60,941 nucleotides of DNA from a virus (IMGVR_UViG_3300025012_000095:1-60941); one strand, 5' to 3'; shown: positions 3,242 through 60,941, counted from the stretch's first letter. The notes: generated by a model from the letters alone, not told the origin. A program made the numbers and translations.

Positions 3242-3304
3242 CCGTCGTGACGGCTGACGTGATCGATGGGCGGCGTCGAAATGGGGATGAGCCGGAGGAC
3301 AACC

Positions 3305-4189
3305 GTGATTTTTTACGTCGGCCTTCACATGCCAAGTCATGCCCGGCATTTCGACAATTGCATGATTAGTGTGAATCGCCTTTGCAAGCGCCGCAGCCCT
3401 TTCGTAGTGCGAAATTGGATTATGGACAGTGGCGCATTCACCACTGTCTATCGCGATGGTGGATACCGGACTCCTCCCGATGCTTATGTGGCTGAGGTTC
3501 GGCGGTGGTCTTCAAACGGCAATCTGGTTGCCGCCGTGTCACAGGACTGGATGTGTGAGCCCGTTGTGCTGGAGAAGACCGGACTGTCCATAGCGGACCA
3601 CCAACGGTTGACGATCGAACGCTATTGTCAGCTCGCACCCCTCATCGACATGACATACCTGATGCCGGTGCTCCAGGGTTATGCGCCGGCCGAGTATGCC
3701 CTACACGTGCGACAATACGGTGAGTTGCTGGCGCCGAGTGCGTGGGTTGGCGTTGGGTCTGTTTGTAAAAGGAACGCTTCGCCTGGGCGGGTGGAGGCGG
3801 TGTTACGGGAGATTTTGACGGTGCGGCCCGACCTGTGGTTGCATGGGTTTGGCCTGAAGACGACAGCTCTAGCAGACGGGCGAGTGCGGGCTATGCTGTC
3901 GTCAGCCGATAGCATGGCGTGGTCCTATGCAGCGCGTTGGGAGGGCCGAGACGCAAACGACTGGAGGGAGGCGGCCCGATTTGTGACGCGAATCGTGTCA
4001 AGGCCGCACCAACTACCATTGTGGCTATCGTCCCACTGTCTAGAGGTGTCGGCGGAGACAGGTGTCGGCGACAATCAGCCTCCGCTTTGTGCGGGGATGG
4101 GCGCGGGGATGAGGATGTGGACTCGCGGCCGAGCAGTCGGTCCCGCCGCGACGTCAACCGAGCAGCCGGCCCTGCCGGGCCTGGCGTAG
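3305..4189 (+). CDS. dpdA: DpdA-like / DUF7221 tRNA-guanine-transglycosylase-fold protein (candidate 7-deazaguanine DNA insertase)
   Basis: TGT-fold motifs DSGAFT, QDWMCEP, PVLQG, VGVGSVC, LHGFGLK, SADSMAWS; RBS GGAGG before GTG 3305. Confidence 0.8.
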   Translation: MIFYVGLHMPSHARHFDNCMISVNRLCKRRSPFVVRNWIMDSGAFTTVYRDGGYRTPPDAYVAEVRRWSSNGNLVAAVSQDWMCEPVVLEKTGLSIADHQRLTIERYCQLAPLIDMTYLMPVLQGYAPAEYALHVRQYGELLAPSAWVGVGSVCKRNASPGRVEAVLREILTVRPDLWLHGFGLKTTALADGRVRAMLSSADSMAWSYAARWEGRDANDWREAARFVTRIVSRPHQLPLWLSSHCLEVSAETGVGDNQPPLCAGMGAGMRMWTRGRAVGPAATSTEQPALPGLA

Positions 4190-5147: not shown

Positions 5148-5849
5148 GTGAGAGTGAAATACTCCAAGTGGTTCCTGATCGTCGCCGCCTTCTTCATCAC
5201 AGCCTTATTGACCGCGAACATAATCGCCGTAAAGTTGATCGACGTCTTCGGGCTGATTATGCCGGCGGGGGTGATCATCTTCCCCGTCAGCTACATCTTC
5301 GGCGACGTGCTCACCGAGGTCTACGGTTACGCTAGAGCGCGCACGGTCATCTGGCTCGGCTTCCTGTGCAACCTGCTCGCCGTGATCGCCATCACCGTCG
5401 CCCAAATCCTGCCCGCAGCCGCCTTCTGGCAGGGCCAAGGTGCCTACGAGACGATTCTCGGCTATGCCCCCCGCCTGCTGTTGGCCTCCTTCACGGCGTA
5501 CGTCGTCGGCGAATTCGCCAACTCGTACGTCCTCGCCAAGATGAAGATCGCCACCCGCGGCCGCTGGCTGTGGACCCGGACCATTGGCTCCACACTCGTC
5601 GGCCAGGGCCTGGACTCTCTACTCTTCATCCTGATCGCCTTCGCCGGCACCATCCCCACGGCTGGTCTGCTGAGTGCCATCATCACGCAGTGGCTCGTCA
5701 AGTCCGCCTACGAAGCCTTGGCCACACCGATCACCTACGCCGTGACTAGCTTCCTCAAGCGCGAGGAGGGCATCGACGTATTTGACTATGACACGAGCTT
5801 CAACCCGATCTCGACGCCGCATCCTCGTGCCATTCGCCGGATCGGGTAG
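5148..5849 (+). CDS. yhhQ: YhhQ/VUT-family queuosine-precursor (preQ0/preQ1) transporter
   Basis: ANIIAVK, FPVSYIFGDVLTEVYG, WLWTRTIGSTLVGQGLDS; multiple TM segments. Confidence 0.92.
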   Translation: MRVKYSKWFLIVAAFFITALLTANIIAVKLIDVFGLIMPAGVIIFPVSYIFGDVLTEVYGYARARTVIWLGFLCNLLAVIAITVAQILPAAAFWQGQGAYETILGYAPRLLLASFTAYVVGEFANSYVLAKMKIATRGRWLWTRTIGSTLVGQGLDSLLFILIAFAGTIPTAGLLSAIITQWLVKSAYEALATPITYAVTSFLKREEGIDVFDYDTSFNPISTPHPRAIRRIG

Positions 5850-7090: not shown

Positions 7091-9130
7091 ATGGGTTTTC
7101 CGCCCACAGAGTCCGATCTATTCCGATCCGCTCTCTCATACATCGCGCATGGTTGGAGTGTCATCCCCATTCGCCCAAGCGACAAACGGCCGTTGGTGAA
7201 ATGGGAAGAGTACCAAACTCGCCTGCCGACAAAACTTGAGTGGGCCGAGTGGTCTAAGACGCCCAATCTCAACATCGCTCTTGTAACAGGCAAGGTAAGT
7301 GACATCACGGTTGTAGATGTGGACGGCGAGGAAGGAATGGAGTCTATCAAAGCCTGCGGACGCCCATTGCCAAAGACACTCCTTCAGAAAAGCCCGCACG
7401 GCTGGCACATGTTCTTCAGGTATTGCGAGAACCTCCGCAACAAGGCAGGGCTGCTTTCAGGCGTTGACGTGAGGGGGGAAGGTGGCTACGTACTCATAGC
7501 GCCTTCCCATCTGTCTGACGGCAGCTACACATGGCGACGCCAATGCACACCACAACCCTTCCCCGAATGGCTGATTCCCGCCTCGGAAGGTGGGCCACAA
7601 AGGCCAGCCCATGAAAAACCTCGTTGGGTGTCGTTTGCGCTTACCAATGGCGCAGAGGCGGGCCAGCGTAACGCGATGGCCACTCGGCTTGCTGGCTATC
7701 TCTTTGGCCGAGGACTGCCAGAAGATGTTGTTCGGGCAACGTTGGAGCCATATCGCCTGGCTTGCAAGCCCGAACTTTCCCCCACCGAACTAAACACCAC
7801 GATCCGAAGTGTCTCCCGCTACCGGAAGTTTGCATCAGCAGCCGGAGTAATGGATCCCCCGACAGTCCAGAAGACGGCGGCGGGTGAGCGCTATCTGTGG
7901 GATGATCTTGCGGTGGAGGTCAGAACAGTAAGCCGAAATAAGACAGCGCTCCTTGCGGAGCTAGGCGTCACTTTGGCACTTCCCGGCTTATCTGAGACCG
8001 TTCGAGCGCCAAGGGTGGTCAATCTGCTGAGCCAGAGAGACTGCGACAGCTTTGCCGAAAGCTTGCGTCGTGTGGTACCGGAGGTGCAATGGAGTAGCCG
8101 GATAGATGTTCTGTGCAGGCTGGTACTAGAGAGCTATCGGCGGGGGGATCCCGCTGTGCTACTCAAGGATTGCCGTAGGGCCAACGGTGTGCAGTATGCC
8201 TTGGAGCCGCTGCTACTGAGTGATAGCCCGACAGTCTGGTTCGCATCGGGCGGGGTGGGTAAATCACTATTGGCGTTAGCAGCTGCGAGCGCTTTGGCTG
8301 GTCATGATGTCTTTGCTGGAATGAGGGCGAAGCGGCCAATGAGAGTACTCTATCTGGATTGGGAATGGGAGGACTGGCAACACGCCGAACGCCTTCGCCT
8401 ACTCCTGGGAGACGATACAGACGTTGCCGACCTCCTCTACCGTAGGTGCTATGGCGCATTGCCGGACGAGATAGAGGCTATCCGGCAGATAGTGGCGGAT
8501 GAGGAGATCGGCTATGTCGTGATAGACAGCCTGGGGGCGGCGTGTGGGGGTGACTTGAATGATGCCGACACAGCCATCCGGTTCAACGGGTTGATCCGCT
8601 CCCTGAATGTTGGTAGCCTGTGGATTACCCACGTAACCAAGAATAACGAGGCGGACGTCGATCGACCCTTCGGCAGCATCTACTTCCACAACATGGCGAG
8701 GTTGGTCTGGCGGGTGAAGCGCCAGACAGAAGTCGATTCGGACGAGATAGCGGTTGGCTTCTATTGTACAAAATCAAACGCCACGCGTCTTCACAAGCCG
8801 GTCGGGCTAACCGTTAGGTTTGGCGAGCGCATCAGCATAACGCCTGCCGACCTGTTGTCGCACTCCACATTGGCGGCGGGGCTCCCGATTCGTGACCGCA
8901 TCCTCCGAGCACTGACACTGGAGCCAACGAGCGAGGTCGGCCTAGCCGAAGAACTGGGTACAACCAGGAGTACGATCCACAAGAAGCTGGAGGCACTACA
9001 AAAGGCGGGCACGATTGAGGCAGAAAACGGGCATTGGAAGCTTGCGCCCACCTCCGAAGTGCTGTTCGTGCAGTCTGATGCGCCAGCGTGGATGGAGTGT
9101 ATTCCGTTCGACTCGCTGTCAGGTGATTAG
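7091..9130 (+). CDS. Bifunctional primase-polymerase (Prim-Pol) + PriCT + AAA_25 helicase + C-terminal wHTH
   Basis: GWSVIP..KRPLVKW, VVDVDG, GWHMFF, GVDVRGEGGYVLIAPS, GQRNAM, GGVGKS, VVIDSL. Confidence 0.9.
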   Translation: MGFPPTESDLFRSALSYIAHGWSVIPIRPSDKRPLVKWEEYQTRLPTKLEWAEWSKTPNLNIALVTGKVSDITVVDVDGEEGMESIKACGRPLPKTLLQKSPHGWHMFFRYCENLRNKAGLLSGVDVRGEGGYVLIAPSHLSDGSYTWRRQCTPQPFPEWLIPASEGGPQRPAHEKPRWVSFALTNGAEAGQRNAMATRLAGYLFGRGLPEDVVRATLEPYRLACKPELSPTELNTTIRSVSRYRKFASAAGVMDPPTVQKTAAGERYLWDDLAVEVRTVSRNKTALLAELGVTLALPGLSETVRAPRVVNLLSQRDCDSFAESLRRVVPEVQWSSRIDVLCRLVLESYRRGDPAVLLKDCRRANGVQYALEPLLLSDSPTVWFASGGVGKSLLALAAASALAGHDVFAGMRAKRPMRVLYLDWEWEDWQHAERLRLLLGDDTDVADLLYRRCYGALPDEIEAIRQIVADEEIGYVVIDSLGAACGGDLNDADTAIRFNGLIRSLNVGSLWITHVTKNNEADVDRPFGSIYFHNMARLVWRVKRQTEVDSDEIAVGFYCTKSNATRLHKPVGLTVRFGERISITPADLLSHSTLAAGLPIRDRILRALTLEPTSEVGLAEELGTTRSTIHKKLEALQKAGTIEAENGHWKLAPTSEVLFVQSDAPAWMECIPFDSLSGD

Positions 9131-10464: not shown

Positions 10465-12930
10465 CCCAAAAGACACCGAGGTGACGCCGTTGAAAGCCAA
10501 GATCACGATTGAGACCGAGGATGGTTGGACCTACCAGTGTGATGCCGTGGAGTGGGACCTAAACCTGGAAGCGGGTTTGAGGGAGACGACTTACGATCAC
10601 GCCCCTAATTTTGTACCGATGAGGCCCACACACGAATATAACCCGCCGGACGACCGTTGGGAGTTGACGGCAAGCGGGTTCGGGTTGCCCTGGCGGAGCC
10701 AAGAGAAAGCGACGGGAGCAGAGTGACGGGGCTATTGATGTGGCTGTTCGACAAGTTGGTCGCGTCGTGGTGGTTCCCATTGCTCGAATGGCTGGGAAGG
10801 CCAAGGCAATGAAGAGAGAAGAGGGGATGGTGGAACACTGTGAAAACTGCTGGTGGTTTTCCGCTCCGCCCAGGCCGGCAGCTCTTGGGGATTGCCAACT
10901 GGCCGGGTCTTACCTCGGTGCCCCCGACAACCCCGACTCACCGATGGTTGCTCAGGACTACGAGGGGTATGCGGCAAGCCTTACAGTACGGCCAACATTC
11001 GGTTGCGTAGCGTGGAGGGCAAAATGAGTGATTTCTCCTACGATAAGGAGCAGTGGGATTGGCCGCACGGCACAGATCCTGGGGTGCTGGCGCTGGACGT
11101 TTGCACGTTGGCCAAGTCCGGCGGCATCACGCTGCCACAGGCAGTTATGCTGCTGGAGTACCACTGTGGTTGGGAGCACGTGGACGCCGTGTGGGCAATG
11201 CGCGGGGAGATTGGAGGACTTGGGAAAGCGATTCGGGCTACGGTGCCGCTAATGGAGGAGGAGGAGGAGGAGTACGAGTATAACCCGCCGGACGACCGTG
11301 AGGAGGTGACGCAATGACGACGATGGTCGTATGCCCGAATGCCGGCCACCCTGGATGGTGTGATGGGTGCTTCCACAACCAGCCGCACGAGCGTAAGCTC
11401 GAATGCACGGAGATTGAAAAATTCCTCGCCCCATGTGATGCTCCGTGTGTGGCAGTGGCGGAGGAGGAGGTGGAGAATGAGTGACTGGAGGCGGTGGTCC
11501 GTCGTTCACGGCCTAGCCAGTTGGGCGTATCGGCTGGGCGTTATCGCGGGGTATGGGGTGCGTGGGACGGTGACCGGTTGGCGGTTGGATAGCGTGCGGT
11601 GGCGAGGCCGCCGCGTGTACCTTCTGGGCTGGCCAACAATGAAGTGGGAGTGCCTGCTCCTGCGGCACCATTGGCCGTACTGGCCGGAGGACCGCCCCGT
11701 ATTCATGGGGCTGTGCGGCCGGTGCCTGCCGTGGCCGTGCTGTGGGTCGATTGAGCATGACCATGTGTCGGGTTGCTCGGCAGAAAGTGAGCACGAGGAA
11801 TAAGGATGACTAGGACGGTCGTTCTTTCCAGTGTGGTCATGGAAGGGCTGGCGTTCAACAACGCCGGTGGCTTATATGAATCGCGGGCGGGTTGGGCTAT
11901 AAGGTGGCGGCGAGGAGAACTTTCGGAAGTCTACTGTCCGGGCTGTCGTAGGTGGCGACAGTTGGCCGAGTCGTTTTCCATCGAGGTTCCGTTGTGTGAC
12001 GGATGCTTGGGGACTTTCCTGGAGCTGTTCGATGAATGAGCTTGTAGCGGTGGTGGAGGAGACTGGCGAGGTCGTGCCGGTTCGCGAATCCCTGTCGATG
12101 GGGCGCCTGCTGGCGCACGCTGATGAGACCGATCGCCTGACGGTCTTGCGGTTGGAGATCGAGGAGCGCATCCGGTTCCTGTGCATCGAGGACATGCCGC
12201 TTGAGAAGTTCAGGTGCGAGGAACGCGATCTCGTGCGGCGCCTTGCGACCGACAAGGAGGCGCTGGCTCAGGCGTTCGCCCCGGAGGTGCGGAAGTCGCT
12301 CGGGGGCGCGATCACGATCGACCTGGGGCGGATTCGGTTCACCTGGCCGAAGCCGACGGAGCGGTGGGTGCAGCGGATCAAGCCGGCCCTGATCTTCAAG
12401 CGGAGGCCGGATCTGGCGGAGGAGCTCGGGATCGAACTCGTGATGGACGAGCCACGGGCGCCGATTGTAACGGTTCGTCCGCCGCGGGAGCTCACAAGTT
12501 GACGCATTACTAGGAGGAGGGGCAAGTGGGGACTAACTACTACTGGGAGACTCCCGCGTCGGAGAAGTGTTCTCTGTGCGGCAGAAGCGACGCGGGGGAA
12601 TACCTCCACATTGGCAAGTCTAGTGGCGGGTGGTGCTTCCTCCTTCACGTCTACCCCGACGAGGGGATAAACGACCTGGAGGATTGGGCTTACAAATGGC
12701 AGGGCTGCGGCTACATCCGCGACGAATATGGCCGCACAATGTCTCCCCCCGAGATGCGCGGAGTGATAACAGATCGTCGTCACCTCGGCCCTCCCTGGAG
12801 CGAGGGGACTTTGGCGCTGAACCATGCAGTGCAAGGCCCGAACGGGTTGGCGCGATGTGAGATTGACGGGGGGCATTGCATCGGCCACGGGGAGGGGGCC
12901 TGGGATTTTATCGTGGGGGAATTCTCGTGA
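10457..12930 (+). other. Cluster of small hypothetical genes (10457-10726, 10809-11027, 11024-11317, 11314-11484, 11477-11803, 11806-12039, 12032-12502, 12526-12930)
   Basis: Coupled start/stop overlaps and RBSs; several are Cys-rich; the 12526 ORF has the phage-type MGTNYY..HIGKSSGGWCF pattern. Confidence 0.6.
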
Positions 12931-13178
12931 AGAGGCACAGGGAGGAGATACTCGAAGCCATCGAGCGGTATTATGCAGAGGTGGGGATTGGCCCTAGTAT
13001 GCGGTGCATCATGACAATGACGGGGATCTCCTCGACCTCAATTGTGAGTTACAATCTCCGCTTGTTGGAGAAGGACGGGGACGTGCGAATCATCATGGAT
13101 GGCTCCGGGCGCCGCATGGTTGCGGGCGGTGTGGTGCCGTCTCAGAAACGCCGCATAGAGATAGCAATGTATGGCTGA
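12927..13178 (+). CDS. LexA N-terminal DNA-binding-domain-only protein
   Basis: EILEAIERYYAEVGIGPSMRCIMTMTGISSTSIVSYNLRLLEKDG resembles the LexA wHTH; no S24 peptidase domain. Confidence 0.75.
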   Translation: MKRHREEILEAIERYYAEVGIGPSMRCIMTMTGISSTSIVSYNLRLLEKDGDVRIIMDGSGRRMVAGGVVPSQKRRIEIAMYG

Positions 13179-19010: not shown

Positions 19011-19316
19011 ATGGCCCACGGCGGGGATTATCTCGAGGGCTCAACGGTTCGTGTCCAAGTGACGTTCGTGGTCGGAGGGGTGAACACCGATCCGACTACG
19101 GTCACGCTCAAGGTCAAGAGTCCGGCGGGCGTGACGACGACCTACACCTATGCGTTGAGCCAGGTGTCGAAGTCGGCGACCGGGGTCTACTCCAAGGATC
19201 TGGGGCCGTCTATCATTGACGCGCCGGGGGCATGGTGGTACAGGTGGATCGGAACTGGCACCGCTGCGGGAGTCGCCGAAACATCGATCACGATCCTCGC
19301 GAGCCAGATAGACTGA
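19011..19316 (+). CDS. Small Ig-like / baseplate-associated virion protein
   Basis: TDPTTVTLKVKSP..TGVY..PGAWWYRWIGTG. Confidence 0.6.
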   Translation: MAHGGDYLEGSTVRVQVTFVVGGVNTDPTTVTLKVKSPAGVTTTYTYALSQVSKSATGVYSKDLGPSIIDAPGAWWYRWIGTGTAAGVAETSITILASQID

Positions 19317-19345
19317 GGCTATATGATCACGGAAAGGGAGCAAAA

Positions 19346-21199
19346 ATGACCGTAGCGGCGAATCCCTGGACAAGCCTAGCCGCATGGTGCCAGGGCGATG
19401 CGTTGGCCACTTCGGCTGTAAAGACTGACGATGAGTTGTGGGAGTGGGTGGCCGACACCCTCGGTGTTGTTATCCCGCGAAAAGCTTGTTTTGACGGGCA
19501 CACGGCCCCATTCGATGCGTTTGCGGAAGCGTTCTTTGCGAAAACCCCGATCTCGGTGTGGATTGGATCTAGAGGATTCTCGGGGAAGTCGTATCTGCTG
19601 GCAGTGTTGGGGATAACGGAGGCGCTGCTACTTGGGGCGGATGTGAGAATCTTGGGAGGGTCCACGGACCAGTCGGAGAACGTAGTTCGGTACACGGAAT
19701 CCTTTATGGGCCGCCCGAAGTTCCCCCCCGGCATGATTCTGTCTGGGAGGCAGCCAGGAGTAACCAAGACTCGAATCAGTCTTGTAAACGGAGGGGGGAT
19801 GATAGCTCTTCCTGCGTCCATGACCGCTGTTAGAGGTCCCCACCCGTCTCGTCTTAGGGTGGACGAGTGCTTTATCGCCGGCACACGAGTTGCCGTGCCA
19901 GAAGGGGTGAAAGTAATCGAGAGCTTTGCCCCTGGCGACAGGGTTCTTTCTTGGAAGGACGGGAAGATAGTTGAGGGGGAGGTTCTTCGTACCTGGGATC
20001 GGGGGAGACGTGAGACTATCAAGTTGACGGTGCGGACGGGCAGCAACTTGGTTTGCACGCCCGAGCACAAGATCCTTGATGGTGTCGAGGACAAGTGGGT
20101 ACAGGCTTCCATCTCAACCTTTGTCCGTACAGCGTCGTTCGTTGAAAAGTGGGAGACGGGGGTAGGGAAGATCGTTGATCGTGTGGCTTTTGGGAGAAGC
20201 CGTGTTTATGACATTGCTACAACTCACGGTAACTACATAGTAGAGGGTGTGATAGTTCACAACTGCGACGAGTTGGACTGGAAGGTGCTTCAGGCTGCGC
20301 TGGGGCAGACGATGGCTGCTGGGGCGGTCCAAGCCCAGACGGTGGTGTCAAGCACTCACCACCACGCTGACGGGACCATGACGCAGGTGCTCAAATTGGC
20401 TGAGGAGCGGGGGTGGGCCACCCACAGGTGGTGTTTCAATTGTACGTCAAAGACGGTTGAGAACCCGACTGGCTGGCTGGCCCCCTCTGAGGTTGCCCGC
20501 AAGCGGCAAGAGGTTCCGGCCGCAATGTTTGAAGTTGAGTATAATCTCTCTGAGCCCAGCCCTGAATCCCGAGCAATCATGCCACAATCCGTCGAGGATA
20601 TGTTTCAGGAGGGGTTGGGTCGTTTTGACGGCAAGCCGGGGGAGTATATAGAGATTGAGGCTCCCGTCCAGGGGGCGCGGTACTCTACGGGGGCAGACTG
20701 GGCCAAGGACGTTAACTGGACAGACATTGTAACGCTCCGGTACGACGTGACCCCGGTTAAGGTGGTGGCCTGGGAACGGCGGGGGCGCGAGCCCTACCCC
20801 ATAATGGCGGGATGCTTAGACAAGCGAGCTACCCGATACCCTGGGAGGGTGTTTCACGACCAAACCGGTGTTGGCAACGGGCTTCACGACTTTTTGAATT
20901 GCAACGCTACCGGTGTGGTGTTGGTGGGGAGGAGGAGAACCGACCTGCTTTCTAGCTACATCACCGCTATAGAGGGAGGGCGGATAGTCGCCCCTCGGAT
21001 TGCACATGTTCACGGTGAGCATCGTTATTGCGCGAGTGACGACCTTTGGGGGGATGGGCATCTCCCCGACTCAGTGTGTTCACACGCATTGGCGTGGTCA
21101 GGAGTAAGTCAGGGCGGGCTAGGTCAACCTGATACTGGCCCCGAGTACAACTTGCTAGATCACACCGAGCTTGGCGGTTGGGATCGACTAGAGCTTTAG
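19346..21199 (+). CDS. terL: Terminase large subunit containing a mini-intein
   Basis: GSRGFSGKS Walker A, RGPHPSRLRVDE Walker B, GADWAK and DQTGVG nuclease motifs, HLPDSVCS. Confidence 0.9.
   Translation: MTVAANPWTSLAAWCQGDALATSAVKTDDELWEWVADTLGVVIPRKACFDGHTAPFDAFAEAFFAKTPISVWIGSRGFSGKSYLLAVLGITEALLLGADVRILGGSTDQSENVVRYTESFMGRPKFPPGMILSGRQPGVTKTRISLVNGGGMIALPASMTAVRGPHPSRLRVDECFIAGTRVAVPEGVKVIESFAPGDRVLSWKDGKIVEGEVLRTWDRGRRETIKLTVRTGSNLVCTPEHKILDGVEDKWVQASISTFVRTASFVEKWETGVGKIVDRVAFGRSRVYDIATTHGNYIVEGVIVHNCDELDWKVLQAALGQTMAAGAVQAQTVVSSTHHHADGTMTQVLKLAEERGWATHRWCFNCTSKTVENPTGWLAPSEVARKRQEVPAAMFEVEYNLSEPSPESRAIMPQSVEDMFQEGLGRFDGKPGEYIEIEAPVQGARYSTGADWAKDVNWTDIVTLRYDVTPVKVVAWERRGREPYPIMAGCLDKRATRYPGRVFHDQTGVGNGLHDFLNCNATGVVLVGRRRTDLLSSYITAIEGGRIVAPRIAHVHGEHRYCASDDLWGDGHLPDSVCSHALAWSGVSQGGLGQPDTGPEYNLLDHTELGGWDRLEL
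19868..20263 (+). mobile_element. Mini-intein (132 aa, no homing endonuclease)
   Basis: Begins CFIAGTRV, block B CTPEHK, ends VYDI..NYIVEGVIVHN followed by a Cys +1 residue. Confidence 0.92.
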
Positions 21200-47496: not shown

Positions 47497-48215
47497 GTGG
47501 GGGACGGACAGGTTGCTGTGGCGAAATCTTCCCCGCGAGACAACCAGGTGTTGCTAGCACTGGCGCGGGTACGTGTTATTTGGGGAGGAATAGTCTATGG
47601 TGAGAACCCTATCTCGAGCGCAAGTGTTTTCGAGATGCGGGTGGCGCTAGATGATCTGGCGAACATCATCATGCAGAGAACGTGGGGGCAGGGTTTTGCA
47701 TTCGAGGCGGCGTGCCGCGCACTACGAAGGGAAGCGAGTGATCCTGGGACAGCTTGGCCTGCCGAGATAGACGATTGGGCAGACGCCTATGATGAATGGA
47801 TGACGACGCAGTGACAGCCGTTCCGTGTGGATCTAGAGTGGAGGAGGGAAAGTGAAAGGACAAAGACGATTGTTCGTGGATGGCGTAGATATGGGCGGCG
47901 TGCAATGGACATTCAACCCGCAGGCGGATGTGCAACAGCAGTGGTTCGAGGATTCCATCGAAGATGACGCAGTGCCCACGGGATACGAGGAGATGGTGGA
48001 GGTTGCAAGGAGGGCGTGGGGTGACTAACGATGTGGTGATGACTGATGCATGGCTTGCCTCCAATATCATCGTCAAGGCGTGTATTGCCAGAGAGCGGTA
48101 TGCTCGCTACTGCCTCGACGAGAACCAGCACGACGACTACGTAGCCGCTCTCATGAGGCTATTCGAGGCAGTCGATCTGTGGACAGAAGTGGGTCAAGAG
48201 CGGAAGGAAAAATAG
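47497..48215 (+). other. Three small hypothetical genes (47497-47814, 47852-48028, ~48021-48215)
   Basis: RBS-preceded short ORFs. Confidence 0.45.
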
Positions 48216-50982: not shown

Positions 50983-51041
50983 TTAGCCTTGCCTAACGCC
51001 AACCATTAGGCCGAACTAACTTATTATTTAGGCTAGGCTAA
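50983..51041. promoter_or_regulatory. Array of three TTAG-N6-CTAA palindromes
   Basis: Start at 50983, 51006 and 51028 (23- and 22-bp spacing). Confidence 0.75.
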
Positions 51042-51114
51042 AAAAGGGGCGAGTTGGCGGCGGCTGGGACGCCAAACGCCGGCTGGCAGGGGCAGAGTGG
51101 GGCGGGGCGGAGTA

Positions 51115-51195
51115 GAACCCCTGTTCATAGGCCATTGTGCCTATGCCAGTATAGGCCATATGGCCGATGCGGAGTGTCAAGGGCCATGGTAGACT
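51115..51195 (+). promoter_or_regulatory. Promoter cassette copy 1: SOS-like box + two operators + extended -10
   Basis: GAACccctGTTC 51115; ATAGGC-N6-GCC(T/G)AT at 51127 and 51151; TGG-TAGACT 51190. Confidence 0.75.
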
Positions 51196-51255
51196 CTATA
51201 CCAGATCGACGCTCGATACGCCAAGCGACACTCACTAAGGAGGCTACGCACGACA

Positions 51256-52978
51256 ATGACGACAGGGACAAGCCGCATCATGGCGGGGTTGGCGAAAGTG
51301 GCGAAAGTAAGGGACGCAATTGGCATCGATGTGCCTGTGTACACGTCGATCCGGACCACGGAGCGTAAGCCGGAGAGTATGCTGGACGCGATCTTTGGTC
51401 CACCCACGGAGACGACGATCACAACGTACTATGTGTCGATGCACAATGGGCAGCTCGCGCAGCATGAGACAACCCAGACACTCCAGACACTATAACGACA
51501 GGTACCACAGCCTCACCATTCTGGTGGGGCTGTATCTTGCCAGGAGGGATCGACGATGGTTAGCAAAGAAAGAGCTCGGCGTGACTCGGCCTTGCGCGTC
51601 GCCACTACGTACGCGCAATCAGGAGACGTGGACGGGGTGCTGACCTGGTTGCACGTTGCTGGCCAGCATATGAAAGTGGAGGGAACGAGCCATCGACGAT
51701 TGTGGCATATGCTGGCCAACGCAAACAACTCCGGGCGACACGCACGGATCGAGGCCATGTTTCTCGAACACCAAGCGCGCATACGCGCAAGAGGAGAGTG
51801 TAACAATGGTTATTAGGGTTTCGGCCGATACCATGACGGAGATCATGGCGTTGCTCGCGCAAGATGAACTCGTAGGTCTGTGCCGAGCCTGTGGCGAAAT
51901 TGCGTACGACGTGGACTCGGATGCGTTTGGCGACGAATGCGAAATGTGCGGCCAGCGCGCAGTTGACGGCGCCGAGGGGCTTTTGCTGGGCATTTCGCTA
52001 TGAACCTGCCCAACACGTGCCGCATCGTGATCCTTCCGCATACTGATGTGGGCGCCGTAACGGTCAACCAGTGGCGCAAGATCACGTGGTTGGCAACCAG
52101 ACCGATGGACTGCGCTCGGCCGGACCTGGCTACGCTACAGTTGTATGGTTCTAACGATTGCGGTCCGGGCTGGCTGGCATTCGAGATGAACTTTGGCAAC
52201 GGTGGCCATTCGCTCTGTGGTGGCATTGCGCCGAATGGCGATAGTCACACGTAACCCTGCCATAGCAGGCGCCTAGCGTGCGACGGTGACCACGCTAGGC
52301 GTCTGCTATGGCCGTGCTACGACCTGGCGGGCCTATATAGGGGCAACGGAGGGACAAATGGGAACACGGCATTGGAGTAACGGGCAGCTCGACCTAGCGC
52401 TCGTCAAAAGAGCGCTGGCGACCAGTGTCGGGCGCGCACAGCCCGACAGACTCATAATCGAGCCGGACGTCGGTGGTGGTGGTGGTGCCTGGTATGCGAA
52501 CGGCTTCTGTGCATACCGCATCTACGATGCAACCATGCAACTACAGTTGACCGCTTTTTTCACGGCCAAGTCAGGCTGTCGCGTCATTACTGACGGGGCC
52601 CCAACGGCCACGCGGCTTGCATCGTTGCATTATCCCGTTGACGCGACGGAGGCAAATCTACTACCGTGGTCGTCCTGGACGCACGATGGGAGGATCCATG
52701 GTGGTTCGACGGTGCGTGTGTTCACGCGGCCAGACGGCCAGCTAGTGGCCTTCAATGATGCGTTCGTACGGCCGATGCAAGAGCTTGGCTGGTTGCTGTA
52801 CCTGGCCAGCAATCGCCACCCACTGCTCGCTGTTGCGGGAGAGCAGGTTATGGCGCTGGCTATGCCGATGGTCTGGGACCACGACAGCCTGTCGCCATTG
52901 CCAGGCGTAGTGGTACCATCGGCAGTGCCCAGCGAAGCGGCGCCTGTGCACGCTGTGCACGCTGGGCACAACGCCTAG
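51256..52978 (+). other. Early gene cluster 1 (51256-51495, 51556-51816, 51806-52003, 52000-52254, 52358-52978)
   Basis: RBS-preceded small ORFs; long hairpin at 52260-52311. Confidence 0.6.
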
Positions 52979-53014
52979 TGGCACACGGCCCAACTGAGAC
53001 GCTAGGCGATCGTT

Positions 53015-53062
53015 GGGAGCGCAACCCCTGGAGAGGTCTCCGGGGGTTGCGCTCCCTTTCGT
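53015..53062 (+). terminator. Rho-independent terminator
   Basis: gggagcgcaacccctggaga...tctccgggggttgcgctccc then tttcgtt. Confidence 0.8.
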
Positions 53063-53212
53063 TGTGTGCCAGGCAAGGCACGAGCATAGGCGTTGGCGCC
53101 TATGCTCCTAGCGCGAATCCTGGCACGTTGTGAGGCAGTCTACGCGGCGGGTTTGGCGCTGGGCACGCTACCACGCGCGCTAAGGGCCGTCGCTGGCCAG
53201 GCTGTACGCAAC

Positions 53213-53382
53213 TAACGCATGTTCCATAGCGTGCGTGGTAGCGGTTTGTAGGGGACGACAGGCCTAGGGACAAGCCGGACGGGGATCCCGAGCTGACGGT
53301 CAGCGGGCAGGGAACGCATGTTCCATAGAACACATATTCTATGATGCGGCCGCAGAACATGCGAGCCATAGAACAGGCGTGC
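53213..53382. promoter_or_regulatory. Cluster of GAAC-N4-GTTC-like (LexA/Cheo) boxes
   Basis: TAACgcatGTTC 53213, GAACgcatGTTC 53312, GAACacatATTC 53328, GAACatgcGAGC 53355, GAACaggcGTGC 53371. Confidence 0.65.
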
Positions 53383-53390
53383 TTTCATAG

Positions 53391-53426
53391 TTAGGCCAGG
53401 CTAACAACAAGTTTAGGCCAGGCTAA
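53391..53426. promoter_or_regulatory. Two TTAGGCCAGGCTAA sites
   Basis: Exact copies at 53391 and 53413 (22-bp spacing). Confidence 0.8.
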
Positions 53427-53532
53427 AAATAACCAGGGCTGGCCCGGTGCTCAAAAAGGCCGTTTTTGCCTTAATAATCGCCTTAATGAGGGCTTCCCCA
53501 AAAAAACGTTTCTTATGCTACTCGATTATCTA

Positions 53533-53562
53533 TTGACAGGCGACAAGCCGTTATGGTAGACT
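53533..53562 (+). promoter_or_regulatory. Sigma70-type promoter with extended -10 and upstream A-tracts
   Basis: TTGACA-18 nt-TAGACT preceded by TGG. Confidence 0.8.
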
Positions 53563-53598
53563 CGTGTCAAGTTCTTAGCACATAGAAAGGGGCGGCCG

Positions 53599-56044
53599 AT
53601 GGTACGAATGGAATCAGCGTTAAGAGTGCGGGGAGCAACGGCTATCGAGTATCCTTCGGGTCGTTGGGGATTTGCGGGGGCAGTTCCGGGCCGTTTGGCG
53701 TTCGTGCGCCAGGATGGAACAGAGCCGACGGCCGAAGAGATCGACGGCGCGCGGCAGTTTGGAGCGAGCATTGTCGGGCTACGCTTGCGGACCTGGGCGA
53801 CGGAAGCGGAGGCTAAGGAGGCGGAGATCCTCGAACGGGCACCGATTGAAGCGGACTACTACCGGGCCAGCGGTGACAACCAATGAGCGACAGTGAGGGA
53901 GGGCGGCGAGCACGGACTACGGCGGAGTGGGCGGCCATAAGTCACTGGCTTATGTTCGGGGCCTTGACTTATGTAAGGCAATCCGGGGACAAGTGGCTAG
54001 CTGAGTACCCGACTGCCCTAGGAGAACCAACCACGGAGTGGTGGACGGAAGCGGGGGCAGAAGCAGAGGTAAGGCGGTTCCTGAAGCAACTTGCGCGCGA
54101 CACACTCTAAGGGGGTGAACCATGAGGCATCTATCGCTGGTCAAGGCACTCACGAGGGCTGGCATTGAAGTCAAGGAACACCAGCTGTGTGGGCCGAATG
54201 GCGAACCGCGCGGATCACAATACTCCGCCGCGGGGGGCGGGTATATCGCCCGGTGGTACGTTCAGGGAGTCAGGGGTAAGCCGGGCACCTTTGACGCCAT
54301 AGCGGTGAGTGTGGGCCGCGACGGGCCGGGCTATTCCGAGTCCTACACGCGCCGGCTAGCGTCCGTTGTGGGCGCACTGGCAGGAAAGTAATGGACGTCA
54401 AGCCGACAGCGCTGCACGCGTATGAGGTGACGTATAACGACGGGGGGGACGGGGATAGAACAGCTATCCGGTTCGGTGAGACGGCGTGGCACGCGGCCAA
54501 GGGGCTCACAGCGGGGGGTGGCGGGTATCCTTTTCCCCTGACGATAATAGACGTGCGGCGCCTTAGCGCTGCTGAGCGGGGCGGGCTGACGAGTTGGGAT
54601 ATAACATCATGAGTGAGCGCATGACGGATCGTCGAGGCTTCGAGGTGGCGACGTGTTCCCGGTGCGCCGGCACCGGGAGGCATAGTTACTGTCAGCAGTA
54701 TGGAGACACCTGCTTCAAGTGCGGCGGGACGGGCCGCACTCACACAAAGCGAGGGGAGGCCGCGCTTCTCTACTTTCGGGATAGCCGGCGGGTACCCGTG
54801 TGCAGTCTGAAGGAGGGTGACAAGTGGTTCCGCAAGGGGGTACCGGGTTACACAAGCGGCAAGTGGGCTACGGTAACGATTGACGACGTGATAGAATTTG
54901 CGAGCAACGTCGGCCGCGTGGTGAAGATCGAAGGGCCGACACTATATCAACAGCGGCTTGCGGCGGCACTGGCATATCAAGAGACGCTAACTATGGCCGG
55001 GACGGTCCGAAAGCGGGTGAGGGCGTGAGGCATTACTGCATATTCACGAGCGCGAACGCGGGGCCTCCCGACGAGATGGGGCGGGAGGCCGACGTATGGA
55101 AATGCATCTTTGACGGGACGGCAAGGGTGGTGGACGTACGGCGAGCTGCACGCACCATGGCAGCTTGCGGGCTACGGGTACGGGCTTTCGTGGAGAGAAG
55201 CGATCAGGGGTACATGGTCCTAGACCTATGACTCACTTCTATGCAGGCACCAGCTATCCCACACGACGAGCGATGATACTCGCGCAGGTTGACGATTGGT
55301 TGACGGGCGACGGATGGCATAACGAGGGGTTTATCCTCAGCTACCTGGGGGAGTGTACAGATCGGGAGATCGACGCTCACATGCTTACGGCACGGTGGGC
55401 TATAGGGAGACGGAACGAGAGTGGTTACGATGGGTCCGAAGGGGAGAGACGGGAGGCTATTGCGGTACTTAGAGCCGGGTATACCGGCGGGAAGGGGGTA
55501 ACATGGAGGATGTAGTGGGGGCGGCGCCATTGGTTCACGGGAACGGTACGTCACTAGACACTCTCACGGAGCAGCTACGGGGGGCCATCGACGCGGGAAG
55601 GGCGGCTCTCGAGGCGCTACACAACACGCACCCCAACGGCCGGGACTACTACCCCGAACCGGGCCGGTGGAATCGGGCAGTGGGGCTATACGAGGAACGC
55701 GCGGCGGCGCTGACGGGAGTTCTCGACTCTCTCATGGCGGAGTGGGAATACCTGGAGGACACCTACCGATGAGCGGGGCCAAAGCTCGCGTATGGTGGCT
55801 TCACTATCCCGGCCTGGGCTACGCGATAACGTTCCACTTCTCTAAGCCCGTTGGGGAGCGGGAGGTGCGCGCCGATGCTCGTGGCTACTTCCGCGTCAGG
55901 AAACTTCCCAATGAGACGGCGGTCGGGGAAGTGGTAGCAGCGGAAGAGATCGAGGCATCGGCGGCGAGGCTAGCGCGCGCCTGGGCGACGGGGAGCCTAA
56001 GGCGATTGGGGTGTTACACGTACACAATCGAGAGACTGCCATAG
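53599..56044 (+). other. Early gene cluster 2 (53599-53886, 53883-54110, 54122-54391, 54391-54612, 54609-55028 Zn-finger, 55025-55231, 55228-55515, 55503-55772, 55769-56044)
   Basis: Coupled small ORFs; the 54609 ORF has a CSRCAGTG..CFKCGGTG DnaJ-type Zn finger. Confidence 0.6.
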
Positions 56045-56101
56045 AACATACGTACATAGGCCAAATGGCCGATGCGTGGAGTCAAGCGAGTCTGATATCA
56101 T
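56044..56101 (+). promoter_or_regulatory. Promoter cassette copy 2
   Basis: GAACatacGTAC 56044, ATAGGCcaaatgGCCGAT 56056, TG-a-TATCAT 56096. Confidence 0.7.
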
Positions 56102-56157
56102 GAGGGTCGATCAGCAGCCACGCAGGAGAGCGCTAAGGCGCTCGGGAAGGGGGAAAC

Positions 56158-56712
56158 ATGGGAACACGAGCTGACTTCTACGTTGGGGTGGGCGAGGGCG
56201 CGGAGTGGCTGGGCAGTGTCGCATGGGATGGATACCAGTGGGCCGAAAGCCCAGACGGCGGGCTAATGGCTACCCGATCTGTAGAGGAGTGGCGGCAGGT
56301 CGTCTCGAGACTCCTCGAACGAGACGACGCCTGCACTCCCGCTCTCGGTTGGCCGTGGCCGTGGAATGATAGCACCGGGACCGACTACGCCTACGCCTGG
56401 CACAACGGCAAGCCGCTAGCGGTACAGTGGGGGGAGGGTTACGAGTGGCCAGATATGTCAGGGGTGCGGGAAGTGGCATTTGACGGTCGGTCGGGGCTTA
56501 CTTTGACAACCAGCGATGGAAATCTGCCCTCCGAGGTTGAACATGCGAGTACTCGGCTGGATCGTGCAATGGCTGCCAAGCGCAACTACGAACGCGAGCT
56601 CGATTATGCCGGCTGGGGAGACCCACATTACTGCACGCGGATGGATGCACTACTCCGCGAGATTCGGGCGGCGCGTAAGGCGCTGACGGCTGCCCTCTAC
56701 GAAGCACAGTAG
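56158..56712 (+). CDS. Conserved-looking phage hypothetical protein
   Basis: MGTRADFYVG..EWLGSVAWDGY..GWPWPWNDS..TDYAY. Confidence 0.7.
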   Translation: MGTRADFYVGVGEGAEWLGSVAWDGYQWAESPDGGLMATRSVEEWRQVVSRLLERDDACTPALGWPWPWNDSTGTDYAYAWHNGKPLAVQWGEGYEWPDMSGVREVAFDGRSGLTLTTSDGNLPSEVEHASTRLDRAMAAKRNYERELDYAGWGDPHYCTRMDALLREIRAARKALTAALYEAQ

Positions 56713-56800
56713 CGGACAGCCGTACCGGCCCGGACCCACGTCCGAGCCGGCGGGCTGGGCGATACTCGCACAGCACCGCGAGAGGGAGGGAAGGCAGACG

Positions 56801-57151
56801 ATGGATGAGATGGCAGTGCGAAAGGCGATGGACACCCTGCGGCTAGGTTGGCTTTCACGGAACTCCGACTACTGCCGCGACTGCGCGGGCGTCGGGATAG
56901 TAACGTCTCGCGAGAATCAGGCGCCGCTCGGTAGCGGGTTGAACTGGGCGGAGACGTCTGTCGAGCCATGCGAGGAATGCGTTGGCGGGGGGAAGTGCCC
57001 GACGTGTGGAAACCCGCTTTTGACCGACCCCGCCGGCCAACCGATCGAGGGCTTCAAAGGCGACGGTCGCATCAGCTGTATAGTGGGTCACGTGTCGATA
57101 GATGGTTGGGCATTCGCGGGCTGCCCGCCGACATACGAAGAGCTCTACTAG
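56801..57151 (+). CDS. Zn-finger hypothetical protein
   Basis: CRDCAG, CEECVG, CPTCG. Confidence 0.6.
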   Translation: MDEMAVRKAMDTLRLGWLSRNSDYCRDCAGVGIVTSRENQAPLGSGLNWAETSVEPCEECVGGGKCPTCGNPLLTDPAGQPIEGFKGDGRISCIVGHVSIDGWAFAGCPPTYEELY

Positions 57152-57159
57152 GGGGAATC

Positions 57160-57786
57160 ATGACAACGAGAGAACGCAAGGAACGCAAGGCAGAGCGCCG
57201 CCGCGCGTGGGCCGAGAGCCGTCGTCGGCAGGCGGCAGTTGCCCGCGCGGGTGCGTCAGCGATCGCAGACGGGATCCCATTCGGGCAGCCGATCCTGGTC
57301 GGCCACCACTCCGAAGCCCACGCACGGCGGGACCAGGATCGCATACATGCGGGCTTCCGCGCGGGACACGAGCACGACCAGATGGCCCAACATCACGAGG
57401 ATCAGGCAGTCGGGATCGAGCAGCAGCTTGATAGCTCGATCTACTCAGATGATGTCGACGCGCACGAGCGGTTGCGGGAGCGCATTGCACGGCTCGAGGC
57501 CGAGCGGGATCGCGTCAAGGCGTACAACGCTTCGTGCCGGAAGGGCGCGAGGGATCTGTCGGTGCTGGACGAGGGGCAGCAGGGCAATCTGCTAAGCGTT
57601 GCACGGCACTGTCCCTACCAGCTAGGGAAGCGCGGCGAGTTTCCCGGCTACCACCTGACCAATCTGGGCGCCCGCATTCGCACGGACAAGAAGCGCCTGG
57701 CCGCGCTAGGCGAGGCGCGCACCTCAGCGGAGCGGACCTCGGCGGAGCGGGCCTACGCGAGGCGTACCTGTACGGGGCGGACATGA
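57160..57786 (+). CDS. DUF3560-domain protein
   Basis: GIPFGQPILVGHHSE..RRD..SIYSDD..YHLTNLGARIR. Confidence 0.85.
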   Translation: MTTRERKERKAERRRAWAESRRRQAAVARAGASAIADGIPFGQPILVGHHSEAHARRDQDRIHAGFRAGHEHDQMAQHHEDQAVGIEQQLDSSIYSDDVDAHERLRERIARLEAERDRVKAYNASCRKGARDLSVLDEGQQGNLLSVARHCPYQLGKRGEFPGYHLTNLGARIRTDKKRLAALGEARTSAERTSAERAYARRTCTGRT

Positions 57787-58029
57787 TCTGGGGCTGGGTG
57801 GGAAGGCGGTTTCTCCCCGAGCGACACGGACAGGCGTGCCGAGTCCTTGTCAGAGGAAGACCGCCTCGCCAGCGACACGTGCTGGTCGAATTCGGTGATG
57901 GGTATTGTACCCGCACAATGCAGGGGTGCCTGAGGAGGCGCAAGATGTTGAATGATGGCGATGGCGATAGTCCCAACGTTCGCCCGTCATGCCCGAGAGG
58001 AGCGGCCGGCACACACGAGGAGGCAGGCG

Positions 58030-58713
58030 ATGATGCGAGATGAGTGTCTGACGATCATTGAGGCGGCTCGGGCTGCCGGGGAACAGCCGGACCTCGGCTG
58101 GGTGAACCTCGGCGGCGCGGACCTACGCGGGGCGGACCTGACCGGCGCGGACCTCGGCGGGGCGAACCTCCGCGGGGCGAACCTCGGCGGGGCGAACCTA
58201 CGCGTGGCGTACCTACGCGGGGCGTACCTACGCGAGGCCAACCTACGCGAGGCCAACCTACGCGGGGCGAACCTCGGCGGGGCTTACCTATGCGGGGCGG
58301 ACCTAACCGGCGCGGACCTACGCGAGGCGAACCTACGTGGGGCGTATCTACGTGGGGCGTATCTACGCTGGGTGTACCTACGCGAGGCCAACCTACGCGG
58401 GGCGAACCTGGCCGGGGCGGACCTACGCGAGGCGGACCTACGCGGGGCGGACCTGTACGGAGCGGACTTACGCGGAGTGAACCTACGCGGCGCGGACCTG
58501 TACGAGTCGGACCTGACCGACGCGGACCTGCGCAAGGGGAACCTCAGTTGGGCGAACCTACGCGAGGCGTACCTACGCGAGGCCAACCTACGCGAGGCAT
58601 ACCTACGCTGGGCGGACCTGCGCGGGGCTGACCTCGGCGGGGCGGACCTGACCGGGGCGATCCTGGACGGGGCGATCCTGGACGGAGAGGAGGCAGGCGA
58701 TGACACGAGATGA
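58030..58713 (+). CDS. Pentapeptide-repeat protein 1
   Basis: About 40 A(D/N/Y)Lxx repeats. Confidence 0.92.
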   Translation: MMRDECLTIIEAARAAGEQPDLGWVNLGGADLRGADLTGADLGGANLRGANLGGANLRVAYLRGAYLREANLREANLRGANLGGAYLCGADLTGADLREANLRGAYLRGAYLRWVYLREANLRGANLAGADLREADLRGADLYGADLRGVNLRGADLYESDLTDADLRKGNLSWANLREAYLREANLREAYLRWADLRGADLGGADLTGAILDGAILDGEEAGDDTR

Positions 58714-59113
58714 GTGTCTGGCAATCGTGGCAGCGGCTTGGGCTGTCGGGGAGCAGCCGGACCTATGCGGAGCCGACCTCGGCTGGGCGAACCTCATCGG
58801 GGCGGACCTCAGTTGGGCGGACCTGCGCGGGGCGAACCTGACCGGGGCGGACCTGACCGGGGCGAACCTGACCGAGGCGGACCTACGCGGGGCCGACCTC
58901 GGCTGGGCGAAGCTGACCGGGGCGGACCTGACCGGGGCGAACCTCAGCGGGGCGAGCCTGACCGGGGCGAACCTAGGCTGGGCGAACCTCATCGAGGCGG
59001 ACCTCAGTTGGGCGGACCTGTGCGGGGCGGACCTGCGCGGGGCAATCGGGTTAGGTACGCCAGCCGAGTTGCTGGTGCGGCTGGACATCAATTACGTAGA
59101 ACCCCTGTCCTAG
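58700..59113 (+). CDS. Pentapeptide-repeat protein 2
   Basis: About 19 A(D/N)Lxx repeats; N-terminus paralogous to protein 1. Confidence 0.92.
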   Translation: MTRDECLAIVAAAWAVGEQPDLCGADLGWANLIGADLSWADLRGANLTGADLTGANLTEADLRGADLGWAKLTGADLTGANLSGASLTGANLGWANLIEADLSWADLCGADLRGAIGLGTPAELLVRLDINYVEPLS

Positions 59114-59177
59114 ACCATTATGCTTATGCCGTATAGGCCATATGGCTGATGCGGGAAGACAAGGGCCGTGGTAGAGT
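59099..59177 (+). promoter_or_regulatory. Promoter cassette copy 3
   Basis: GAACccctGTCC 59099, degenerate operator 59110, ATAGGCcatatgGCTGAT 59133, TGG-TAGAGT 59172; about 90 bp similar to 51112-51204. Confidence 0.75.
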
Positions 59178-60815: not shown

Positions 60816-60941
60816 GTGTTGGCGTGCGGATGCGTAGCAGACTCGATTGGTGGGCTCTGGGCGCCGTGCGCCGAAGTGGCAGAGGTGCACGCTCTCGCGT
60901 GTGAGCTGGCGGGCCAGGGGCTTCTGTTAGATTCCGAGAGA
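60816..60941. repeat. 126-bp direct terminal overlap, copy 2
   Basis: Identical to 4..129. Confidence 0.95.

Follow-up and report, generated by a model that had tools for sequence, protein, structure and literature searches.

A palindrome-based cassette at early promoters lacking a -35 element in an uncultured groundwater phage and in phages without detectably shared proteins

Phage early promoters are usually seen as strong, self-sufficient and of host type; where they are regulated, the regulator and its operators usually belong to the phage itself and diverge fast. The uncultured groundwater phage IMGVR_UViG_3300025012_000095, an IMG/VR virus record 60,941 nt long (the whole stretch of DNA analysed here, hereafter the window), raises the question of what reads early promoters that have no -35 hexamer. 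Three such promoters, P1, P2 and P3, head successive gene clusters in the 51–60.9 kb part of the genome, 3' of the lysis module, which we call the early gene arm. They share an 18-bp palindrome (consensus ATAGGCC-N4-GGCC[G/T]AT), a GAAC-type box and an extended -10 element (consensus TGnTAnnnT). Judged from its sequence, this cassette is a real regulatory module, backed by solid statistics and conserved in evolution. Our best explanation, to which we would give a little less than an even chance, is that P1–P3 are activator-dependent early promoters of class II type, with the palindrome being read by a conserved factor, most likely of the host.

The three cassettes lie on the plus strand, and positions such as -42.5 count from a transcription start placed 7 nt after the -10. 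P1 opens with the GAAC-type box GAACCCCTGTTC (51115–51126, centre about -81.5; extended form TAGAACCCCTGTTCAT, 51113–51128), which abuts a distal palindrome, ATAGGCCATTGTGCCTAT (51127–51144, about -66.5). A proximal palindrome, ATAGGCCATATGGCCGAT (51151–51168, about -42.5), follows and overlaps by 2 bp a vestigial -35 (ATGCGG, 51167–51172). The extended -10, TGG-TAGACT (51187–51195, with the -10 itself at 51190–51195), is found 21 nt after the proximal palindrome; transcription would start near 51202, and the first gene begins with ATG at 51256. P2 is simpler, with the box GAACATACGTAC (56044–56055, about -58.5; extended form TAGAACATACGTACAT, 56042–56057), a single palindrome, ATAGGCCAAATGGCCGAT (56056–56073, about -43.5), and, 22 nt further on, the extended -10 TGA-TATCAT (56093–56101, -10 at 56096–56101), which reads TGATATCAT and precedes a first gene at 56158. 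In P3, the box GAACCCCTGTCC (59099–59110, about -79.5; extended form TAGAACCCCTGTCCTA, 59097–59112) is located within the final bases of the open reading frame (ORF) 58700–59113. It is followed by a degenerate distal palindrome, CTAGACCATTATGCTTAT (59110–59127, about -65.5), with three mismatches to ATAGGC-N6-GCCKAT, and by a proximal palindrome, ATAGGCCATATGGCTGAT (59133–59150, about -42.5), with one; the extended -10 TGG-TAGAGT (59169–59177, -10 at 59172–59177) comes 21 nt after the latter, and the first gene starts with GTG at 59235. A lone perfect palindrome, ATAGGCGTTGGCGCCTAT, to which no strand is assigned, is present at 53086–53103, 30 nt after a terminator hairpin (53015–53056), with no -10 at 21–22 nt downstream. 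On reading the sequence, we recovered every box, operator and lone-palindrome coordinate given by the initial annotation of this DNA, together with the final operator 21–22 nt before an extended -10, the missing TTGACA and the six ordinary promoters that it had listed.

The palindrome stands far above chance. Genome-wide, exact ATAGGC-N6-GCCKAT gives six strand matches (four sites), with 0.01 expected, and none of 100 shuffles reaches six; with up to two mismatches there are 20 matches as compared with 7.16 ± 2.99 in the shuffles, none of 100 reaching 20. At the -35 position of P1–P3, the hexamer 17 nt 5' of the -10 is ATGCGG or ATGCGT, matching TTGACA at two of six bases. The six ordinary promoters, near 295, 6603, 9592, 45162, 47811 and 53533, carry instead TTGACR (GTGACA at 47811) separated by 17 or 18 nt from TAnnnT. 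Four of these six have TGGTAGAMT as their -10, the same extended kind as in P1–P3; P1 and P3 carry this -10 too, in the form TGGTAGAST. One of them, P4 (53533–53562, plus strand), reads TTGACA-18-TGG-TAGACT, with the -35 kept, and has in common with P1–P3 a spacer element, G[TA]CAAG, at about -27 to -21 (51176–51181, 56081–56086, 59158–59163 and, for P4, 53542–53547). P1–P3 thus resemble the ordinary promoters of this host in all respects except the -35. They combine a weak or absent -35 with a competent -10, as class II promoters do, and the palindromes nearest to the -10, centred from the presumed starts at -42.5, -43.5 and -42.5, respectively, lie within the class II range of -41.5 to -43.5. 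The activator-type geometry proposed initially, a site at about -42.5 with an extended -10 and no -35, therefore holds once the start is placed in this way. A sigma-28-type reading of the GCCGAT motif was dropped, as no TAAA is found 15 nt upstream. Separately, a repeat, TTAGGC...AGGCTAAAAA, occurs at 51006–51044 and 53391–53429, about 105–125 nt 5' of P1 and of P4; we take it to resemble a DtxR/IdeR iron box.

Is this geometry a property of one genome? Among sequencing runs containing this phage, none of RNA is listed; DNA contigs from four public runs are the same as the window sequence save in the pentapeptide repeats and therefore offer no natural variation for testing conservation. The region had no DNA match in the phage collection, and no close relative was found in IMG/VR with the portal, gp52286 or gp12876 as queries, gp52286 having none in metagenomes either; the palindrome was in none of the 18 loci with distant gp56158 homologues. 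The cassette was first seen elsewhere by a pattern scan, in a 2.1-kb metagenome contig (L190). An IMG/VR scan for tandem palindromes then gave seven stretches, of which five are real and two are coding false positives, and a scan for box plus palindrome gave three, all real. The cassette-bearing phages are G609 (65,186 nt with direct terminal repeats, three cassette promoters), G611 (11.9 kb, two promoters; it contains L190, with the same sequence save a few base differences) and G612 (64,402 nt), to which is added G610, a 15.6-kb fragment carrying the promoter modules of G609. G612 has a single promoter, with one box, one palindrome and, 22 nt further on, TGC-TACAAT; around the cassette, its DNA has no BLASTN match in G609. 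With this phage, nine promoters in four lineages are known (three here, three in G609, two in G611/L190 and one in G612); the first eight were tabulated, and that of G612 was considered separately. Two broader IMG/VR scans were less productive: ATAGGCCANNTGGCCNAT gave 40 matches, mostly chance-like or coding, with similar spacing at L016, L035 and L023/L024, and TAGGCCANNTGGNNGATG gave at least 119 matches, with the cassette in none of the 80 loci examined.

The arrangement is the same throughout. In all nine promoters the 18-bp proximal site is followed after 21 nt (22 nt in P2 and G612) by TAnnnT, which is preceded by TGn in seven of the eight tabulated promoters and in G612. The eight carry zero to two further palindromes upstream, 23–24 bp apart from centre to centre, and the GAAC-type box abuts the upstream-most palindrome in six of them and in G612, a third palindrome taking its place in the other two. 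The proximal site ends in ...GAT in eight of eight, while the distal sites all end in ...TAT or ...TAG; this difference is systematic and located at the polymerase-facing edge. Half-sites are kept across the phages, whereas the centre of the palindrome (N4/N6) and the spacers between sites are different (AAAT versus CCCT; ATGAAT versus GCCGT), a pattern expected of protein contact sites. The G609 cassettes also head its early arm, in three copies as here. The initial annotation had looked to relatives for conservation of its geometry, and the same spacing is indeed present in three other phage lineages, an outcome that speaks for function.

These lineages have little else in common. BLASTP of the ORFs of this phage against those of G609 and G611 returned only two weak matches, and tblastn revealed no proteins shared between this phage and L190 or the other loci tested. 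The replication modules differ, G609 having Pol A and an SNF2 helicase, and the G+C content is 60% for this phage versus 47% for G609. As far as the sequences tell, the new element is thus the recurrence of one cassette, with one spacing, in three other phage lineages that have no BLASTP-detectable proteins in common with this one.

The site also occurs in contigs of bacterial appearance. A metagenome scan with a 21-mer gave 95 stretches, of which 80 were examined: 48 fall in one conserved coding context, and the other 32 reduce to 25 distinct contexts. TAnnnT lies exactly 21 or 22 nt after the site in nine of these 25 non-coding-type contexts, at most two contexts share any other offset, and none of the 48 coding matches has it. 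The nine contexts form about five independent groups, one being the phage contig L190. A second is 3' of HD_5-GerE (LuxR-family) regulator genes, directly before a leaderless SnoaL-like gene; the others are before DUF4331 genes, before a hydrolase gene and on contig L223. In three more contigs, the site separates a divergent HD_5-GerE gene from the gene next to it. We also observed that in nine G+C-rich contigs the 21-mer adjoins HD_5-GerE regulator genes, and that several of the HD_5-GerE contigs have, 22 nt downstream of it, a TAnnnT directly 5' of the leaderless SnoaL-like gene. Homologues of these regulators are present in 59 of 251 Actinobacteriota genomes; among 30 such loci examined, two have the 21-mer at three to four mismatches, only one of which (L392) is plausible. 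Five of the 30 come from genomes flagged as unpublished, which bear on this negative count only. A LuxR-type HD_5-GerE regulator may be the reader of the palindrome, but this is a lead only.

How could such a promoter work? In the mechanism that we favour, the main RNA polymerase of the host would read the extended -10, TGnTAnnnT, and the missing -35 contact would be made good by a DNA-binding protein that sits as a dimer on the palindrome of 18 bp at about -42.5. The further palindromes 23–24 bp upstream would allow cooperative loading, and the GAAC-N4-GT box abutting the upstream-most palindrome would be a second, auxiliary site that modulates loading, with host LexA as the most obvious candidate binder. 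The -10 distance fixed within 1 nt, the -35 absent throughout and the altered proximal half-site together argue for a stereospecific contact with RNA polymerase over occlusion. In addition, the cassette in phages without detectable shared proteins and the 21-mer in bacterial promoters make a conserved host factor the most likely reader, since a near-identical operator across diverged proteomes is hard to reconcile with a specificity encoded by each phage.

Several observations weigh against this explanation. The start sites of P1–P3 are placed from the -10 position alone, an extended -10 can work without a -35, so that the site could equally hold a repressor clashing with sigma region 4, and the 23–24 bp tandem spacing is not helically in phase, unlike that of tandem CRP-type sites. 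The 21-mer search pattern already required GATGCG, so the asymmetry of the bacterial matches was selected rather than observed. The motif is also rare in the sampled genomes: the exact 21-mer occurs in none of 301 Actinobacteriota genomes, and in 301 Chloroflexota genomes it gives, with up to one mismatch, 30 matches versus 11 for the control, a single one with the geometry (L432, with the exact site, 21 nt and TG-TAGCGT). As for the proteins, AAA_24 members are found in both this phage and G609 yet are not linked by BLASTP, which is insensitive, so that a small diverged phage regulator may be present in all lineages, or these may have a distant common ancestry. Finally, no host was pinpointed: the homologues of the phage YhhQ protein (57–74% identity) are spread over Desulfobacterota, Rubrobacteraceae, Chloroflexota and others. 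The portal gave two distant matches in each of the sets of 301 Chloroflexota and 301 Actinobacteriota genomes, with portal matches at 24–29% identity, and the DNA polymerase of G609 is only 26–27% identical to known phage polymerases.

In a first alternative, the palindromes could be operators of a repressor encoded by the host or by the phage (an immunity repressor, an early shut-off protein or a LexA-like protein) that silences the early promoters as lambda OR/OL do. The operator size and the 23–24 bp spacing resemble those of the lambda operators, the sites overlap the -35 position of promoters whose extended -10 needs no activator, every early-arm promoter without a -35 carries the cassette, and the lone palindrome at 53086 behind a terminator would fit such a scheme. 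The sites, centred at -42, -66 and -89, nevertheless overlap neither the -10 nor the start. The loss of the -35 is conserved, and steric repression does not require a -10 distance that varies by no more than 1 nt over the nine promoters and the bacterial contexts. Lambda-type immunity operators overlap the -10/-35 and adjoin a repressor gene, a combination not seen here. Searches of 93 ORFs with Pfam and of 63 ORFs with PHROGs, which also provide the gene annotation used throughout, revealed no integrase and no CI-type repressor, so the absence of both from view, noted at the outset, stands. Neither a CI-like nor a Cro-like gene was detected in the phage genome, nor any gene on the minus strand; the plausible genes are all on the plus strand. 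Minus-strand ORFs at 53.1–53.4 kb were considered as a hidden repressor and ruled out, their translations being implausible. On balance we regard repression through the palindromes as unlikely, though a serious competitor.

A second alternative makes the phage supply its own activator. The protein at 12927–13178 (plus strand, 83 aa), listed initially as a helix-turn-helix protein, is a truncated LexA homologue with the DNA-binding domain only, which may bind the GAAC-type boxes or else the palindromes. It matches Pfam LexA_DNA_bind (E = 1e-7, 32.1 bits, cut-off 23.7) and has 130 relatives at E ≤ 0.001; the domain is present in 51 of the 51 relatives aligned, nine of which are full-length with Peptidase_S24, and the recognition-helix consensus of the family is SSTSVVxYNL. 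Its AlphaFold2 model (predicted local distance difference test, pLDDT, 83.6) has the LexA structures 3jso and 1lea as top Foldseek matches, with a root mean square deviation of about 2 Å and weak E-values (2e-3). An identical protein (P0004) is listed for 36 contigs. At 107,166 nt, the longest of them exceeds this genome in length and could represent a prophage, a concatemer or a larger relative.

The model for such an activator is phage GIL01, whose gp6, a truncated LexA homologue, binds a palindrome at -43.5 that overlaps the -35 and activates the LexA-controlled promoter P3 (PMC6182141). GIL01 P3 resembles the present promoters in four respects: no dedicated phage repressor, a class II activator site (here a putative one) in the form of a palindrome overlapping the -35 near -43, LexA-like boxes in the same promoter and a phage-encoded LexA homologue with the DNA-binding domain only (PMC6182141). 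By the same source, the LexA boxes of GIL01 are 3' of the -35, inside the core promoter, whereas the box is upstream here, at -58 to -81, and the palindrome is GaCACAC GTGTGaC there but ATAGGCC-N4-GGCCKAT here. Tandem palindromes and three promoter copies further set this phage apart. Transposed to the window, gp12927 made from the ordinary promoter at 9.6 kb would activate P1–P3 at -42.5, with host LexA on the GAAC boxes. The identity of gp12927, established by Pfam, relatives, model and fold match, and the common geometry of palindrome and box, as expected of two related binders, agree with this circuit. Yet no LexA_DNA_bind protein is found in G609 (complete), G610, G611 (18% complete) or G612 (75% complete), so that here, unlike in GIL01, the LexA homologue does not accompany the cassette from phage to phage. 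The profile of the gp12927 family has no match at E ≤ 10 among the ORFs of G609 and G611, the sole winged-helix protein in G609 reaches a probability of 0.9% when aligned to the family, and tblastn with gp12927 gave no match in the phage collection. A near-identical operator in phages with unrelated proteins would moreover be unusual for a specificity encoded by the phage, and the Foldseek E-values are weak. Undetected in the other cassette-bearing phages, gp12927 cannot be the general reader of the cassette, which makes a host-encoded activator the more likely; we judge the GIL01-like circuit improbable.

Does LexA act on the GAAC-type box in a class II scheme with a host activator? In Firmicutes, Actinobacteria and Dehalococcoides, LexA recognises GAAC-N4-GTTC. 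That the boxes are LexA boxes is plausible; P1 has a perfect match, and P2 and P3 have one mismatch each. Across the seven box-bearing cassettes, only GAAC (AAAC in one)-N4-GT is kept, the right half being GTTC, GTAC, GTCC, GTCA or GTAT, a variation that weakens the LexA reading. Besides, at -58 to -81 the boxes do not overlap the core promoter, as boxes through which LexA blocks a promoter would, so LexA bound there would not occlude RNA polymerase. GAAC-N4-GTNC is not enriched genome-wide, with 12 matches versus 7.8 expected and 13 of 100 shuffles reaching 12. Its placement is non-random despite this count: with up to one mismatch, four of the five AGAAC-N4-GTTCT sites fall in non-coding DNA, which by our own gene tiling makes up 6.6% of the genome, and the fifth is in the final bases of the ORF before P3. 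If the SOS motif of the host is of the Gram-positive type, host LexA on the box is plausible; SOS-conditional expression is purely inferential.

A cluster of GAAC-type boxes (53208–53385, plus strand), better palindromes than the boxes of P1–P3, is located in a 620-nt non-coding region 5' of P4. It includes GAACGCATGTTC at 53312 and a near-perfect 18-bp palindrome, ATAGAACACATATTCTAT (53325–53342), followed by GATGCGG, the tail found at the proximal sites of P1 and P3; both are on the plus strand. Together, ATAGAACACATATTCTAT and GATGCGG (53325–53349) look like a GAAC-type version of the cassette, with no good -10 at 21 nt. Box and palindrome in fact follow one common layout, ATAG-xxC-N4-Gxx-CTAT, from which it may be that related proteins read the two, or that the box is a weak variant site for the reader of the palindrome. 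In its most extended form, the host-factor explanation would have unrelated phages of one uncultured host group, without repressor or integrase, share an early cassette read wholly by host proteins, with a class II activator on the palindromes and LexA on the box. Host physiology and DNA damage would then control early transcription in place of any regulator of the phage, and a non-cleavable LexA mimic would add a layer on the extra box cluster at 53.2–53.4 kb in this phage. We consider this full scheme improbable. Overall, the interpretation given in the initial annotation, early clusters gated by LexA together with an activator, is partly supported.

Other known systems help to place the class II reading. 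At lambda PRM, cI binds OR2 and OR1 cooperatively and activates through a contact with sigma region 4; the 17–18 bp operator near -42 touching a poor -35, with neighbours 23–24 bp apart, resembles the present arrangement. Here, however, no divergent promoter is repressed by the same sites, a cI-like gene was not found, and three promoters, as well as unrelated phages, carry the sites. The lux box of LuxR and the class II sites of CRP, FNR and NtcA have in common with P1–P3 a palindrome of 16–20 bp at -41.5 to -42.5, an absent -35 and a fixed spacing to TAnnnT, but the half-site TAGGC(C) matches no motif that we could name. In CTX-phi PrstA, coliphage 186 tum and N15 antC, a site for the host SOS repressor is likewise placed within a phage control region; LexA binding has been demonstrated there, while here a degenerate box alone is known, from sequence. 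By analogy, the cassette appears close in logic to GIL01 P3 and lambda PRM but differs in being common to unrelated phages.

That the palindromes are non-transcriptional repeats, either origin iterons for the primase-polymerase/helicase encoded at 7091–9130 or packaging or recombination sites, is very improbable: the DNA-binding winged helix of that protein and the origin-like look of the GAAC-box cluster and AT-rich repeats at 53.2–53.5 kb would suit such a role, but G609 has the same cassette despite a different replication module, and the sites keep a fixed distance to the -10 and always face a gene start.

The remainder of the genome has a simple layout. Bases 4–129 are 100% identical to bases 60816–60941 over 126 nt; the genome, classed as 'linear' in IMG/VR, is thus closed (circular) or terminally redundant and complete at about 60.8 kb. 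Replication and recombination genes occupy 0–19 kb (AAA_24/Sak4-like, DpdA, YhhQ, a primase-polymerase/helicase with a C-terminal winged helix and an HNH nuclease), structural genes 19–45 kb (a Mu-like portal, a gpT-like head protein and a 2,368-aa tape measure) and lysis genes 45–50.9 kb (SLT, S8 peptidase and GH25). The 51–60.9 kb part contains small genes without assigned function, a DUF3560 protein and two pentapeptide-repeat proteins. No transfer RNA genes were found in the phage genome. The pentapeptide-repeat genes (57952–58713 and 58700–59113) are adjacent, show a 15-nt periodicity and are the sole part of the region where the public-run contigs differ or break. The DpdA homologue (3266–4189) and the YhhQ/Vut_1 transporter (5148–5849) suggest a 7-deazaguanine DNA modification; the transporter gene has a G+C content at third codon positions of 0.85, with 57–74% identity of its product to bacterial homologues. 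The protein encoded at 7091–9130 (679 aa) fuses a primase-polymerase, an AAA_25 helicase-type ATPase and the C-terminal winged helix, in a layout that we take to resemble that of the phage P4 alpha protein. A 655-aa ORF (19232–21199) 5' of the portal gives Hint/intein signals, all under the Pfam cut-offs, and may be an intein-bearing terminase.

In contrast to the usual picture of phage operators that diverge fast, one operator sequence and one geometry are kept here across unrelated proteomes and different G+C contents and are also found in bacterial promoters. If the reader is a host factor, the cassette would be a marker of host range and host state for uncultured groundwater phages, and phages could be linked to hosts through genomes with a matching regulon, the 18-bp site being a concrete bait for pull-down of the factor. 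These phages would then exemplify a strategy in which host regulators, LexA perhaps among them, decide on the start of infection.

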